From positions 2,848,001 through 2,912,000 of the forward strand of contig JAXHMG010000003.1 of the NCBI GenBank assembly GCA_034521595.1: a stretch of 64,000 nucleotides of DNA, given 5' to 3'. The notes below the pieces were generated by a model that saw only the letters and a list, made by a program, of their open reading frames with translations, was not told where the DNA came from and did not search any database. Below are positions 29,619 through 34,760 of this stretch, piece after piece. The DNA is from Gemmatimonadota bacterium (GTDB taxonomy: Bacteria > Gemmatimonadota > Gemmatimonadetes > Longimicrobiales > Gaopeijiaceae). A program made the translations under genes and the position numbers. Each line of letters opens with the position of its first letter. Within the stretch, counting starts at the first letter, position 1.

Positions 29619-31859
29619 TCACGGAGCGCTTTCGTCCGTGGCCTCCGTCCCCGCTTCCTCGAAGTGCTCCGCGAACCAGTCGAGCAGGCGCCGCCAATGG
29701 TCGTGGAAGCCCTCCTCGGTGCTGGCGCGTCCGGCCCCGTGTCCGCCGGCGGTGTAGTGCACCCAGACCACGTCCTTACCGAGTCGACGAAGCGCGTAGT
29801 ACATCTCGCGCTGGTTGGTGGCCGGCACGTTCCAGTCACCCTCGCCCGTGAGCATGAGCAGGGGCGTGTCGATGCGGTCGGCGAACATCACGGCCGAGTG
29901 TTCGATGTACTTGTGCGGCTGTTCCCAGAGGGTGGCGCCGATACGGTCCTGCCCGACCTCGGCGGCGGCGTAGTTACGCGTGGTGATCTTCGGTGAGTCT
30001 CCGAGGAACGAGATGATGTTGACCTTCCCGGACACGTTGGCGGCCGCGGTGAAGCGGTCCGTCTGGGTGATGAGCAGGTTGACCGCGTAACCTCCGTAGC
30101 TCTGCCCGTACACGCCCACCTTCTCGGCGTCGACCAATCCGCGCTCGATGAGGCCGTTGACCGCGTTCGGCACCGCCTTGAGCCAGGCCTCGCCGGGGTA
30201 TCCCTCCTCGAATTGCACCGACGGCCGCAAGCCGAACCACCCCTGGGCCGTGACGAGATTCATGTTCTCGTGGAAGCCGTTGTCGAAGAAGTCCTCGTAC
30301 ACTTCGACGACGAGCGGGTAGGTGCGGTCCGGGTCGTAGTCGACGGGATAGTAGAGGATGCCGTGCAGCGTGTTCCCGTCCACGTCGAGGTACTCGACCA
30401 GCTCGGTCCGGGCGAGCGGGACGTCGTCGAGCTGGGGGTTGAGCTCGGTGAGCTGGACGGGATCCGCCGTGACAGCCTTGGTCCATACCTCGTCGGGCCG
30501 GTCCCCGTCGGAGCGCGCGTACACCAAGGTGCCGCCGTCTTCGGACACGTTCCATTGGCCGTAGACGGCGTCGTCCAGAATGATCTCGTCCACGGCTCCG
30601 GAGGCGAGGTCGAGGCGCTTGATCCCCCGTTGCCAACGGTCCCGCGCGGAGTAGGTGAAGAGCAGGTGCTCTCCGTCCCGGGTCCAGCGCTCCACGGAAC
30701 GGCGGGGGCGCTCGTCCTCGTTCTCCTCGAGCTCGAATACCGTGGCGAGCGGGCCGCCGTCCGCGGGGACCTGGTGCCACCCTTCCTCCGAGGTGAGCAG
30801 GAGGTGCTCGCCGTCGGGGCTCCAACGCTCGACCGAGAAGTCGGTCTCGACGGTGTCGCCCGGGAGGGTACGGAGCCCCTCGGTCACGTCGCGGGGCTCG
30901 TCCGCGTCGATCCCGCGGACCAGGACGGCGCCGTCCTCGGTGTACGCGAAGGCGTCTCGTGCCCGGGTCCAGCGAACGTCGATGCGGTCTTCCGTGGGCT
31001 CGACCAGCTCGCGACGCTCGCCGCTCTCCAGATCGAGGGCCGTGACGCCGTACTCGGTACCGTCCCGGCGCGTATACGACGTCTCGGTGGGCACGGCGGT
31101 CGTGTAGGTGATCCGCGCCCCGTCCTCCGTGAAACCGGGATCCCGGGGCACCGCGTCGGTCGGGAGCTCGCGGACGGATCCGTCCGCCACGGAGACGAGC
31201 ACCGTCACCTGCTCGTCCTCGAGGTCACGCACCCGATCCCAGGCCAAAAAATCATTCCGTGAGTCCTGCACGATCACCGGCGCTTCGGTCATCGCGTGGA
31301 ACGCCTCCCGGGCACGGCTCTCCCAACCGTCGGGCCGGAGCCCGAGCAGCAGCGTCTCTCCGTCCGGCGCCCACACGACCGGAGAGGACGAGGCGATCGG
31401 CTTGCCCGAATCCAGCGGGAGCGTGCGGGCCCGCCCCTCCTCGGCATCGTATATGCGGAGACGGAACGCGTCACCGTCATACAGCAAGTAGGCCAAGCGA
31501 TCGCCCTCGGGGGACCAGGTGAAGTCACTGACCTGGGCCGGCTCCTCGTGCAGCCAGACGCGCTCGCCGCTGCGCGTGTCCACGACCATCGCCGTGACCA
31601 GCGACGGCGCCACGTACGTGGGATCTCCGAAGCGCTCGTGATCGGTATCGAGGCGTCCGCGACGGGTCCGCAAGGTGACCGCGGCACGCGCTCCGTCGTC
31701 CGTGACCGCCACGATCCGGGGCGACCGCACGTCCAGCGCCAACTCGGTGTCGAAGCGCTGCTGGGCTTGCGCCGCTCCGGGCAGCGGCGTGCCGGCCATC
31801 GTCAGGAGGCAGATGAGCGGGATAGCGAATCGACGGATCGGGGAGCGGGTCGGGCACAT
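29619..31859 (-). CDS. Secreted S9 (prolyl oligopeptidase family) peptidase
   Basis: Signal peptide, beta-propeller repeats (WSPEG/WAPDG), GQSYGG Ser, GEGDWNV Asp and GGH His. Confidence 0.9.
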   Translation of the reverse strand: MCPTRSPIRRFAIPLICLLTMAGTPLPGAAQAQQRFDTELALDVRSPRIVAVTDDGARAAVTLRTRRGRLDTDHERFGDPTYVAPSLVTAMVVDTRSGERVWLHEEPAQVSDFTWSPEGDRLAYLLYDGDAFRLRIYDAEEGRARTLPLDSGKPIASSSPVVWAPDGETLLLGLRPDGWESRAREAFHAMTEAPVIVQDSRNDFLAWDRVRDLEDEQVTVLVSVADGSVRELPTDAVPRDPGFTEDGARITYTTAVPTETSYTRRDGTEYGVTALDLESGERRELVEPTEDRIDVRWTRARDAFAYTEDGAVLVRGIDADEPRDVTEGLRTLPGDTVETDFSVERWSPDGEHLLLTSEEGWHQVPADGGPLATVFELEENEDERPRRSVERWTRDGEHLLFTYSARDRWQRGIKRLDLASGAVDEIILDDAVYGQWNVSEDGGTLVYARSDGDRPDEVWTKAVTADPVQLTELNPQLDDVPLARTELVEYLDVDGNTLHGILYYPVDYDPDRTYPLVVEVYEDFFDNGFHENMNLVTAQGWFGLRPSVQFEEGYPGEAWLKAVPNAVNGLIERGLVDAEKVGVYGQSYGGYAVNLLITQTDRFTAAANVSGKVNIISFLGDSPKITTRNYAAAEVGQDRIGATLWEQPHKYIEHSAVMFADRIDTPLLMLTGEGDWNVPATNQREMYYALRRLGKDVVWVHYTAGGHGAGRASTEEGFHDHWRRLLDWFAEHFEEAGTEATDESAP

Positions 31860-32170: not shown

Positions 32171-33099
32171 GTGGACGCACGCCACGATCCACCGAACCCC
32201 GGCAGCGGGCTCACCGCGACCCGAGCCCCGGTCATCGAGGACGCGCAGAACCGGGGCGAGCTGTTCATCGAGCAGCCGTACCACCTGTACTCCGAAGAGA
32301 ACCACCGGACATGGCAGCGGCTCTACGACCGGATGGCGGATCGCTGGGATCGCTACGCCAACGCCCACTTCCTCGAGGGCCTCGACCGGCTGTGCTTCGA
32401 CCGTGAGCGCGTCCCCAAGCTCGAGGACGTCAATCAGTTCCTCGAGCCCCTGACCGGCTTCACCGCTCGCGCTGTCAGCGGCTACATCCCCGCCTTCCAG
32501 TTCTTCGATTCGATCGCGAGCGCGAGTCTTCCGACCACGATCACCATCCGGTCGGGTGAGAACCTCGACTACCTCCCCGAGCCCGACATCTTCCACGACA
32601 TCGCCGGGCACGTGCCGATGCACACCGACCCGGCATTCGCCGAGACGCTGGTGAAGCTCGGCGGCTGGACCGCTCGCGGCCGAGCGCGCACGGAGCCACA
32701 GGGCACCGCCGACGTCGACGCTTCGGCTCGCCTCGCCAGCATTCTCCGGGTATCACCCGCTTCTTCTGGTTCTCGGTCGAGTTCGGCCTGATGCGCGACG
32801 GCGACGGCATCCGCGCCTATGCAGCGGCCTCCTGAGCTCCTACGGGGAGCTGGCCTACTCCGCGAGCTCGCCACAGGTCCAACGTCAGCCGTTCCAGCTC
32901 GAATGGGTCATCAACCAGGGCTTCCAGATCGACTCCTATCAGCCCTTGCTCTTCGTCGTCGACTCCTTCGACCACCTCTTCGCGCTCGTCGAGGAGCTCG
33001 AAGATTGGGCTCCGCCAAGGCAAGCTCGACAACGTCGCCCTCGGCGACCCCGACGTCAGCGACGACCAGCTCCGCGAATTCATGAGCGCCGGCGAATGA
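32171..33099 (+). CDS. phhA: Pterin-dependent aromatic amino acid hydroxylase (phenylalanine 4-hydroxylase), frameshifted in this sequence
   Basis: DYLPEPDIFHDIAGHVP (two Fe His). After frame changes: FFWFSVEFGL (Fe Glu), SGLLSSYGEL and YQPLLFVVDSF. Confidence 0.82.
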
Positions 33100-33648
33100 C
33101 CCAGCCGCCCCGCCTCGGAGATCCCGCGCCGCCCCTCGACCTCCCGACGCTCGACGGCGGGCGAGTCGCACTCGACGGACCGCGGGACCGCGCCGGTCAT
33201 CATCTCGTTCCTCCGCCACGCCGGCTGACTCGATCTGCCGCTCGCATCTCGTGAAGATGCACGACAGGAAAGACCGCATCGCGGAGCTCGGAGCCGACGT
33301 CGTCTTCGTCGCGTTCGACGAGCCGGACGAGCTGCGCGCGAAGCTGGTCGCGGACGTCGACCTCGCGTTTCCGTTGGCCTACGATCCCGCGCGGGAGTCC
33401 TACCGGCAGTGGGGGCTGCAGCGCGTGGCCTGGTGGAAGATCTGGCTCGACCCCGGAGTGTGGAAAGCGTACGCGCGTCTGCTCGCCTCGGTGAGCGGCT
33501 GCGCGGCGGGGGCACCGACGCGCTTCAGCTCGGCGGAGACTTCGTGGTAGCGGCCGACGGAACGGTGGTGTACGCGAGGCCCCAGGAGCGGGACGACCGC
33601 CCACCCGTGGGAGAGCTGCTGCGCGCGGTGGGGAAGCTGGAGCGTTAG
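33096..33648 (+). CDS. Peroxiredoxin-like (AhpC-TSA_2 / SelU / PRXL2-like) protein, probable selenoprotein (UxxC)
   Basis: The reconstructed frame reads SFLRHAG-TGA-LICRSH, with C-terminal QLGGDFVV...DRP. TGA at 33226-33228 occupies the first redox Cys position. Several 1-nt indels are needed. Confidence 0.72.
33235..33267 (+). promoter_or_regulatory. Putative bacterial SECIS element
   Basis: Stem GCATCT/AGATGC (33244-49/33255-60) with loop CGTGA about 21 nt after the in-frame UGA. Extendable by TC/GA and CTG/CAG pairs. Confidence 0.55.
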
Positions 33649-33662
33649 CGGACCACGGGACG

Positions 33663-34760
33663 CTAGCGCCCCGGCGGTCGCCTCGGGATCATGACCGGCT
33701 GGATCCGCTGGTGCTTCACGACCCGGCGCTGCGAGACCTCTCCGCCGTAGACGTTGCCGTCGCCGTCCACCGCGACGCCTTCGGGTCCGCTGAGCTCATC
33801 ACCCCCAGGTTCGGGCTGTTCCAGGTCTCGGGGATGAAGTGGAAGACCCAGCCGGTGCGCGCGTCCCCGACCCGGATGCCCCGCTCCCAGCCGGCGTTGC
33901 GCTGGCCCGTGTAGTCGTTCTCGGCCGGGCTCGACTCGGAGTCGGCGACATAGATCAGGTCGTTCTCGTCGATGAAGATGCCGCTCGGACGGCCGAACTG
34001 CGTCCAGAACGCGATGAACTCACCGTTCTGGTCCAGGATGTGGATGCGGTTGTTGTACCGGTCGCCCACGAAGAGCCGCCCCTGGGAATCCATCGCCAAC
34101 GCGTGGGGCTCCAAGAACTCGCCCGGCCCGTAGCCGGACTCGCCGAACGTCGCGACGTGCGTGCCGTCCGGGGCGAACTTCACGATCCTGTTGGGGCTCG
34201 AAGGGCCGTGTCCTTCGGCGACGAAGATGTGTCCGTCGGGTGCGACCAGCACGTCGTTGGGGCGGGTGAGATGGGTGGGCGGATCCCCGGGCTCGCCGGG
34301 GCACCCCGAGCGTCATCGAGAAGCTCCCCGTCCGGACTGAACTTGCGGACCGCGTGGCCGAGCCCTGCTTCCTCGGCACCCTGCCTCCACGCGTCGGTGA
34401 TCCAGACGTTGCCGTTCGGCTCCACGAACATCCCGTGCGGCCAGGCGAGCAGGCCCGCGCCGAAGCTACAGAGAGCACGTTCCCCTCGGTGTCGAGCAGG
34501 AGCACGGGATCGAGATCGGAGCCCACGCAGGTGTTCCGCCCGCACCGCTCCGCCACCCAGAGATCACCGTCCGGCGACGGATACATCGCGCTCACCGAGC
34601 CCCAGGAGCGCCCGTCGGGAAGGTCACCCGCAGGTGTAGTCGGGCTTGAAGGGGTTGGTGACGGACTGGGCATCGAGGATGGCGGGCAGCGTCGCCGCCA
34701 GCGCCAAGCACACGACTATGGGGGCGGACCTCGATGGGACGGCTCCTGCGGCTGGAAGGG
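33663..34760 (-). CDS. Secreted NHL-repeat beta-propeller (peptidyl-alpha-hydroxyglycine lyase-like), frameshifted
   Basis: PHGMFVEPNGNVWITD, PHALAMDSQGRLFVGDRYNNRI, GRPSGIFID and GPEGVAVD across several frames. Start approximate. Confidence 0.78.

Follow-up and report, generated by a model that had tools for sequence, protein, structure and literature searches.

We analyzed a putative selenoprotein gene at positions 33096 to 33648 (+) of a 64,000-nucleotide (nt) stretch of DNA from a Gemmatimonadota bacterium of the family Gaopeijiaceae (assembly GCA_034521595.1, contig JAXHMG010000003.1, positions 2,848,001 to 2,912,000 of the forward strand). This stretch, referred to below as the window, has a G+C content of 69%, and positions are numbered from its first nucleotide. 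The start codon of the gene, ATG (33096-33098), overlaps the TGA stop codon (33097-33099) of the upstream phenylalanine-hydroxylase gene (ATGA overlap). Codons for VIISFLRHAG (GTC ATC ATC TCG TTC CTC CGC CAC GCC GGC) are found at 33196-33225 and are directly followed by an in-frame TGA at 33226-33228, as described in an earlier note on this DNA, which had proposed that open reading frame callers split a UxxC selenoprotein (U, selenocysteine [Sec]) into fragments. The frame one base on from the TGA reads ...ICRSHLVKMHDRKD..., and QLGGDFVV, given in the earlier note as the end of the product, is encoded at about 33525-33548, though in yet another frame. The gene ends with GKLER followed by a TAG stop codon (33646-33648). 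The earlier note had removed one extra base to restore the frame; that base was located at 33231 and confirmed by short-read contigs, but three frame changes rather than one (at about 33192, at 33231, and at about 33489) are needed across the 553-nt gene in the window.

On the basis of the sequence and its relatives, the locus very probably encodes a 183-residue selenoprotein, a thioredoxin-fold oxidoreductase of the AhpC/TSA ("SelL-related") type with FLRHAG-U-L-I-C as the active site. In the corrected reading, the first coding segment (33096-33191; Met1 to Arg32, by frame translation), which belongs to an N-terminal part conserved in relatives (alignment A2), is followed by an extra base at 33192 that shifts the frame and is probably an assembly insertion. 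The second coding segment (33193-33225) encodes PVIISFLRHAG, a strand and a loop leading into the redox motif, and the TGA (33226-33228) would encode selenocysteine at residue 44, where the U-L-I-C motif begins. A second extra base, a C at 33231 that is also probably an assembly insertion, lies inside the Leu codon (CT-c-G). The third coding segment (33232-33489) completes the Leu codon with one base, runs from ICRSHLVKM... to ...YARLLA, and breaks off two bases into a Ser codon; it contains the predicted resolving Cys (TGC, 33236-33238). The frame shifts back at 33489-33490, where a run of G is one base short, and the fourth segment (33490-33648), encoding GERLRGGGTDALQLGGDFVV... to GKLER and the stop codon, covers positions 74 to 112 of the 114 positions of AhpC-TSA_2. 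All these features are on the + strand.

The frame breaks were compared with short-read contigs. A search of public runs led to two runs of one sample, X1 and X2, holding 0.35 and 0.27 of the sampled words, respectively, and their contigs were aligned on positions 32400 to 34000 of the window. Record 2 of X1 (1,253 nt) spans 33123-34000 with 4 other letters and 4 gaps, and record 7 of X2 (2,765 nt) spans 33123-33671 with 2 other letters and 6 gaps. Both contigs lack one base at 33192 (depth, 8.32 of 8.32 in X1 and 6.44 of 6.44 in X2) and one base at 33231 (omitted in two X1 contigs and one X2 contig) and contain an additional G behind 33489, which results in a single open frame. Neither run reports another letter at 33226-33228. 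The TGA was therefore kept in the contigs, and TGC or TGT, named in the earlier note as a refuting outcome, was not seen in them. Because the contigs drop the C at 33231 rather than an A, TGA CTG ATC TGC (U-L-I-C) is the right repair, in agreement with the choice made previously. A 129-residue protein encoded by a 2,765-nt contig (P0011) corresponds to the C-terminal part of the window's product in an unbroken form and reads ...LLASGERLRGG.... Runs X9 and X3 gave only short, less similar pieces elsewhere and left the gene itself uncovered, and no X1 or X2 contig matched positions 32832 to 33101. The window's genome comprises 3.49 Mb in 3 contigs, and indels are as numerous as substitutions (4 versus 4) over the 878 nt shared by the window and record 2 of X1. 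The three frame breaks most likely arose as indel errors in a long-read-type assembly rather than being present in the organism. Frameshifts in the assembly did not prevent recognition of the selenoprotein. Long-read assemblies rich in indels can therefore conceal or mimic recoding sites, and calls of this kind should be checked against short reads.

A search of 41 related genomes with the middle fragment of the gene returned matches in the window's genus alone. In two relatives of the genus (L022 and L023, the same contigs as L026 and L025, respectively), the gene is a single open frame containing an in-frame TGA in the context FLRHAG-TGA-LICR(A/S)HLVKMHD. One scan of genome contigs and one scan of metagenome contigs yielded 18 and 26 loci, respectively. 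The column aligned with the TGA was present in 37 loci, namely, L024, 17 of the 18 genome loci, and 19 of the 26 metagenome loci, the other 8 being devoid of the N-terminal part. TGA was found at this column in 36 of the 37 loci, all 36 of which contain FLRHAG, and also in two further genomes of the phylum (L074 and L075). The titled genome records that harbor the locus belong to Gemmatimonadota, Longimicrobiales, Actinomycetota (Nitriliruptorales, Egibacteraceae, Gaiellaceae, and others), and Vicinamibacteraceae. In alignment A1, all 30 relative rows contain the TGA; 26 of them read TGA CTG ATC TG(C/T), and the remaining 4 differ in the Leu or the Ile codon. Alignment A2 showed a mean column identity of 60% over the whole length, with coding conservation on both sides of the TGA. 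The single exception among the 37 loci, L024 (positions 1366 to 1863; genome G005, same genus), carries Ser at the Sec column, encoded by TCA, which differs from TGA by a single base; the context is FLQEAS-S-PTC. This homolog is 44% identical in alignment A2 and 46% identical in the homology search, and it is devoid of both the hairpin considered below and the WWKIWLDP insert. In a sample of 301 genomes of the phylum, 7 matched at an E value of ≤1e-10, and the gene is therefore rare and patchy. These seven matches comprise the window's own gene, two more TGA forms, one of which is only 45% identical, and four distant CxxC forms.

The hairpin predicted in the earlier note, with a G-containing loop about 21 nt past the TGA, was found at 33244-33260 and consists of the arms GCATCT (33244-33249) and AGATGC (33255-33260) enclosing the loop CGTGA (33250-33254). 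Once the extra base is removed, the stem starts 14 nt after the UGA and the loop lies approximately 20 to 21 nt after it, a spacing that we take to fit the published rules for bacterial selenocysteine insertion sequence (SECIS) elements. Folding of the relatives, also advocated in the note, was performed on 31 sequences of 48 nt starting at the TGA (mean identity, 83%). RNAalifold recovered one 6-bp stem with the 5-nt loop CGUGA, together with compensatory changes. Stem pair 22-32 is CG in 25 sequences, UA in 5, and UG in 1, and pair 19-35 is GC in 27, CG in 2, and broken in 2. The covariation score was 0.139, in comparison to a mean of 0.065 for shuffled alignments, none of 500 shuffles reached 0.139, and slid-register controls gave scores of 0.000 to 0.114. 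L075, which is 45% identical, has the stem with its offset unchanged; the closing pair (19-35) is U-A, and the loop is GGUCG. The element thus combines compensatory changes at 2 of the 6 pairs, G or U in the apical loop, and a fixed distance from the UGA. At the corresponding position, the Ser homolog L024 and four Cys homologs (L077 to L080) fold differently.

The genome encodes the complete selenocysteine machinery, the search for which had been put forward as a check: tRNA-Sec (68.9 bits; identified by ARAGORN as SeC with the anticodon TCA), selA (542 bits), selB (313.5 bits), and selD (375.2 bits) were all detected above their cutoffs. The selD gene (L009; G000:C3:3027242-3028168, minus strand) has an in-frame TGA of its own, in the context GAG-U-ACKLG, and the selenophosphate synthetase that it encodes is, by prediction from this sequence, itself a selenoprotein in this genome. 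Another peroxiredoxin-like gene that contains an in-frame TGA (L044; G000:C3, about 3030545-3030862, minus strand) is located 2.4 kb from selD and reads ...VVLVFFRGHW-U-PYC-ARQLGEL.... Its product has a lipoprotein- or signal-peptide-like N terminus, weakly matches the family NF040769 with one TGA, and is probably another UxxC selenoprotein. The gene studied here would add a selenoprotein to this genome, in which SelD is also of the Sec type and another UxxC peroxiredoxin-like gene lies near selD.

Pairing of Cys with TGA at the same column, a further check suggested previously, was observed in protein databases. A search with an intact relative (P0001) as the query listed 120 proteins. Three of the 120 are full length, and two of these (P0019 and P0020) read RHAG-C-LIC. 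The other 117 have 105 to 145 residues, cover 56 to 73% of the query, and start just after the TGA; several carry names such as "AhpC/TSA family protein." Fragmentation by open reading frame callers, as had been claimed, was thus the rule among the relatives listed, 117 of which are called without the N-terminal part and lack the active site as annotated; reading the UGA as Sec restores a complete enzyme. Among the best 150 of 8,543 cluster representatives, 68 have CxxC, 6 have SxxC, 2 have WxxW, and 5 have other motifs, so that CxxC accounts for 68 of the 81 representatives having the column. The remaining 69 have no such column, and 56 of them begin 2 to 14 residues past it. Cys forms (L077 to L080) were also found in the same phylum. 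Database translations show W at the Sec column in the third full-length protein listed (P0021; W-LIC) and in two representatives (P0224 and P0264; WxxW). These W translations may be TGA codons read under another table, in which case the WxxW proteins may be UxxU forms like SelL.

The family of the protein was examined in the intact relative P0001 and in fragments of the gene, which is split in the window. The fragment encoded by 33230-33547 matched AhpC-TSA_2 (32.2 bits) and AhpC-TSA (29.6 bits), and the coding sequences flanking the TGA are parts of a single AhpC/TSA domain. P0001 matched AhpC-TSA (PF00578; 59.7 bits, cutoff 26), AhpC-TSA_2 (PF13911; 48.8 bits, cutoff 27), and the Redoxin domain (36.4 bits). 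The best-scoring curated family, and together with AhpC-TSA/AhpC-TSA_2 the closest one, was NCBIfam NF040769 ("SelL-related redox protein"), matched by P0001 over model positions 2 to 171 of 173 (114.6 bits; E value, 3.7e-33), by all 30 members of alignment A2 (all below an E value of 1e-5; best, 4.3e-36), and by the two pieces of the split gene in the window (44.6 and 21.5 bits). The AlphaFold2 model of P0001, a relative and not the window's own protein, displays a thioredoxin fold (predicted local distance difference test score, 93; predicted template modeling score, 0.90), and its first helix (residues 47 to 58) begins directly after U46. The best Foldseek matches of this model were Bcp4 (3hjp; E value, 1.4e-11; template modeling [TM] score, 0.72), peroxiredoxins, and ResA. 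In a profile search of PDB sequences, the U column was matched to the motif Thr of the peroxiredoxins, and the second Cys was matched to the peroxiredoxin Cys; we take this Thr/Cys pair to be the TxxC motif, with the Cys as the peroxidatic residue. The canonical Thr-x-x-Cys motif of peroxiredoxins is absent from this family, the Thr column of 2ywn and 2cx3 being its Sec/Cys column.

The features described above suggest how the protein may be made and may function. The UGA at 33226-33228 would be decoded as selenocysteine by SelB and tRNA-Sec, recruited by the mRNA hairpin located 14 nt past the UGA, as its conservation and covariation suggest. The product would be cytoplasmic, with Sec at the N terminus of the first helix, where the attacking Cys of thioredoxin-like CxxC proteins is located. 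Since Sec occupies this place and the second Cys falls on the peroxidatic Cys, selenolate chemistry is likely. The selenolate would attack a disulfide, a peroxide, or another oxidized substrate and would then form a selenenyl-sulfide with the Cys located three residues on, followed by re-reduction by a thiol system.

Several other explanations of the locus were considered. The three frame changes within 553 nt could be real, the gene belonging to a selenoprotein family but decaying as a pseudogene in this strain; the adjoining phenylalanine-hydroxylase gene is also spread over three frames, and the indel-free contigs, which differ from the window upstream of 33123, perhaps come from another strain. 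We regard this explanation as unlikely, because 4 indels for 4 substitutions is the ratio expected for long-read consensus errors rather than for evolution, because indels likewise affect the following gene (33792) and only partial matches were obtained for other genes in the window (e.g., the aldehyde dehydrogenase), and because the reading frame is otherwise fully conserved. An artifactual TGA would imply that an inserted A converted TGC into TGAC in the gene of an ordinary CxxC enzyme. Dropping the A at 33228 indeed gives C-S-I-C and mends the frame by a single change, and CxxC forms are common in the wider family, but the contigs drop the C at 33231 instead of this A and the TGA is present in every relative row of alignment A1 and in 36 of the 37 loci. 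Conversion of TGC into TGAC was ruled out by the short-read contigs and alignment A1, and the probability that we assign to this artifact is negligible.

The two other explanations accept the TGA and differ on its decoding. The UGA could be a true stop codon, with translation of a product of about 130 residues beginning at the following start codon and the 43 codons upstream remaining untranslated or encoding a separate peptide, which is how the 117 truncated relatives of 105 to 145 residues are annotated. This is highly improbable given that the upstream part is conserved in frame over three phyla (alignment A2) and provides, with high model confidence, the redox motif as well as the initial strands of the thioredoxin fold; the Cys-containing homologs are full length, and the short product would be deprived of the whole active site. 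Alternatively, the UGA could be read as Trp or Cys via near-cognate decoding, and W indeed appears at this column in the translations of P0021 and of two cluster representatives. These W calls may themselves result from translation of TGA under another table, and the complete Sec system with its Sec-type selD, the conserved hairpin at the distance of a SECIS element, and the use of TGA as an ordinary stop codon in 25 of 30 related genes examined make decoding as an amino acid other than Sec very unlikely. Together, the retention of the TGA, its pairing with Cys, the hairpin, and the Sec machinery support the proposal of the earlier note that a UxxC selenoprotein has been split into fragments.

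Several observations weigh against a selenoprotein at this locus or temper the evidence for it. The gene is rare in the phylum sample, in which the TGA form was present in 2 genomes besides the window's own (301 searched). The folding energy of the hairpin region in the window was no better than that of shuffled sequences (z = -0.34; 64 of 200 shuffles at least as good); it was not significant in L025 or L037 either and was only weakly significant in L028 and L031. Folding energy is therefore unusable as evidence, and it is conservation and covariation in the relatives that place the hairpin beyond chance. A scan of positions 33000 to 33700 against Rfam (E value, ≤10) gave no SECIS or other credible family. 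The X1 and X2 contigs diverge from the window upstream of 33123; their source is therefore a close relative or a different strain, and they cannot be proven to derive from the assembled organism. Their depth was low (8.3 and 6.4), and contigs hide rare variants. Finally, the score of P0001 (114.6 bits) falls under the NF040769 cutoff of 120, and the protein is therefore a borderline neighbor that is not filed as a member of this family.

In the window, the selenoprotein gene lies between genes for a phenylalanine-4-hydroxylase (Biopterin_H; 32270-33099, +), spread over three frames from about 32650, and for an NHL-repeat protein (33716-34673, -), which is split; both X1 and X2 indicate the loss of a T after 33792. 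Probable frame breaks were also noted at 37921-38778/39217-40791, where an aldehyde dehydrogenase matches positions 45 to 268 only of a 461-position profile and a pyridine-nucleotide disulfide oxidoreductase matches 32 of the 110 positions of the dimerization domain. The 746-residue peptidase open reading frame at 29619-31859 is intact; indel errors seem patchy, and the window reads as a long-read-type assembly. The neighbors present in the window are not common to the relatives, and the hydroxylase of genome G004 is on another contig.

DUF3179 was the sole recurring neighbor family, adjoining the selenoprotein gene in 9 of the 61 loci searched (L025:326-1501; L030:1-1224; L028:2198-3127, -; L041:2056-3117, -; L050; L051; L052; L057; and L070). 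L023 also has DUF3179 but is the same contig as L025, and several of the loci bearing this family are close kin. DUF3179 is located upstream on the same strand in one Gemmatimonadota locus and one Nitriliruptoraceae locus and is convergent and downstream in the others; none was found in the 64-kb window. A 2026 review of prokaryotic selenoproteins (PMC13188914) lists DUF3179 as a selenoprotein family (UxxC/T). Among the longest flanking open frames, 19 of 29 flanks had no Pfam family and are probably spurious frames in GC-rich DNA. In a Nitriliruptoraceae locus (L035:825-2324, +), a protein with AIRS and AIRS_C domains, a pair that SelD also contains, is encoded directly downstream of the selenoprotein gene.

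Comparison with known proteins places this family among thioredoxin-fold enzymes. BCP/PrxQ peroxiredoxins have the same fold (3hjp; E value, 1.4e-11), and the Thr of their motif is replaced by Sec here. ResA aligns with a TM score of 0.86 on the target length (2h19), its CxxC facing the UxxC of this family; in contrast to ResA, visual inspection of the N terminus revealed no membrane anchor. In comparison to both BCP/PrxQ and ResA, the family has about 40 extra residues (WWKIWLDP...LRGGG) before the GGDF strand. For prostamide/prostaglandin F synthase, a relative with a solved structure (9us9), the alignment spans profile positions 19 to 161. The AhpC-TSA_2 relatives of the protein presumably form the same branch as cd02970. 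Eukaryotic SelL (UxxU) and SelU (CxxU) are peroxiredoxin-like thioredoxin-fold selenoproteins from which the present protein differs in the position and number of Sec residues.

Related bacterial selenoproteins have been published. SelL is called "a Prx-like protein" in the Global Ocean Sampling selenoproteome study (PMC2398784), in Table 2 of which Prx-like and Redoxin UxxC-type classes appear as Prx-like 1 to 3. Table 1 of the 2026 review (PMC13188914) includes peroxiredoxin (Prx)-like thiol:disulfide oxidoreductases (PF00578; UxxC or UxxU) and "Redoxin family" UxxC selenoproteins, both "predicted with high confidence," as well as a peroxiredoxin-like cd02970 (AhpC/TSA) class with a UxxS motif. 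The main text of this review does not contain the accession NF040769 (term find), and a literature search on selenoproteins and selenocysteine in Gemmatimonadota found, by title and abstract, no paper about this protein. Since the Prx-like, Redoxin, and cd02970 classes are already published, the kind of protein is known from the descriptions given there; the gene is unsurprising to a specialist, yet it is widely miscalled. The same gene and hairpin occur in three phyla. We tentatively propose, as a possibility that we hold to be rather doubtful, that FLRHAG-U-LIC-R defines an undescribed clade spread horizontally with its nearly unchanged SECIS hairpin among Gemmatimonadota, Actinomycetota (Nitriliruptorales, Egibacteraceae, and Gaiellaceae), and Vicinamibacteraceae and acting with DUF3179 as a partner in an undescribed redox pathway. 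As described in the sources cited, the cd02970 class has UxxS, whereas the second position of the motif is an invariant Cys (UxxC) in this clade. The AhpC-TSA domain, the Redoxin domain, and UxxC are shared with the Prx-like and Redoxin selenoproteins, from which, compared by description alone, the clade is set apart by its own near-fixed FLRHAG-U-LIC-R motif and near-fixed hairpin sequence.

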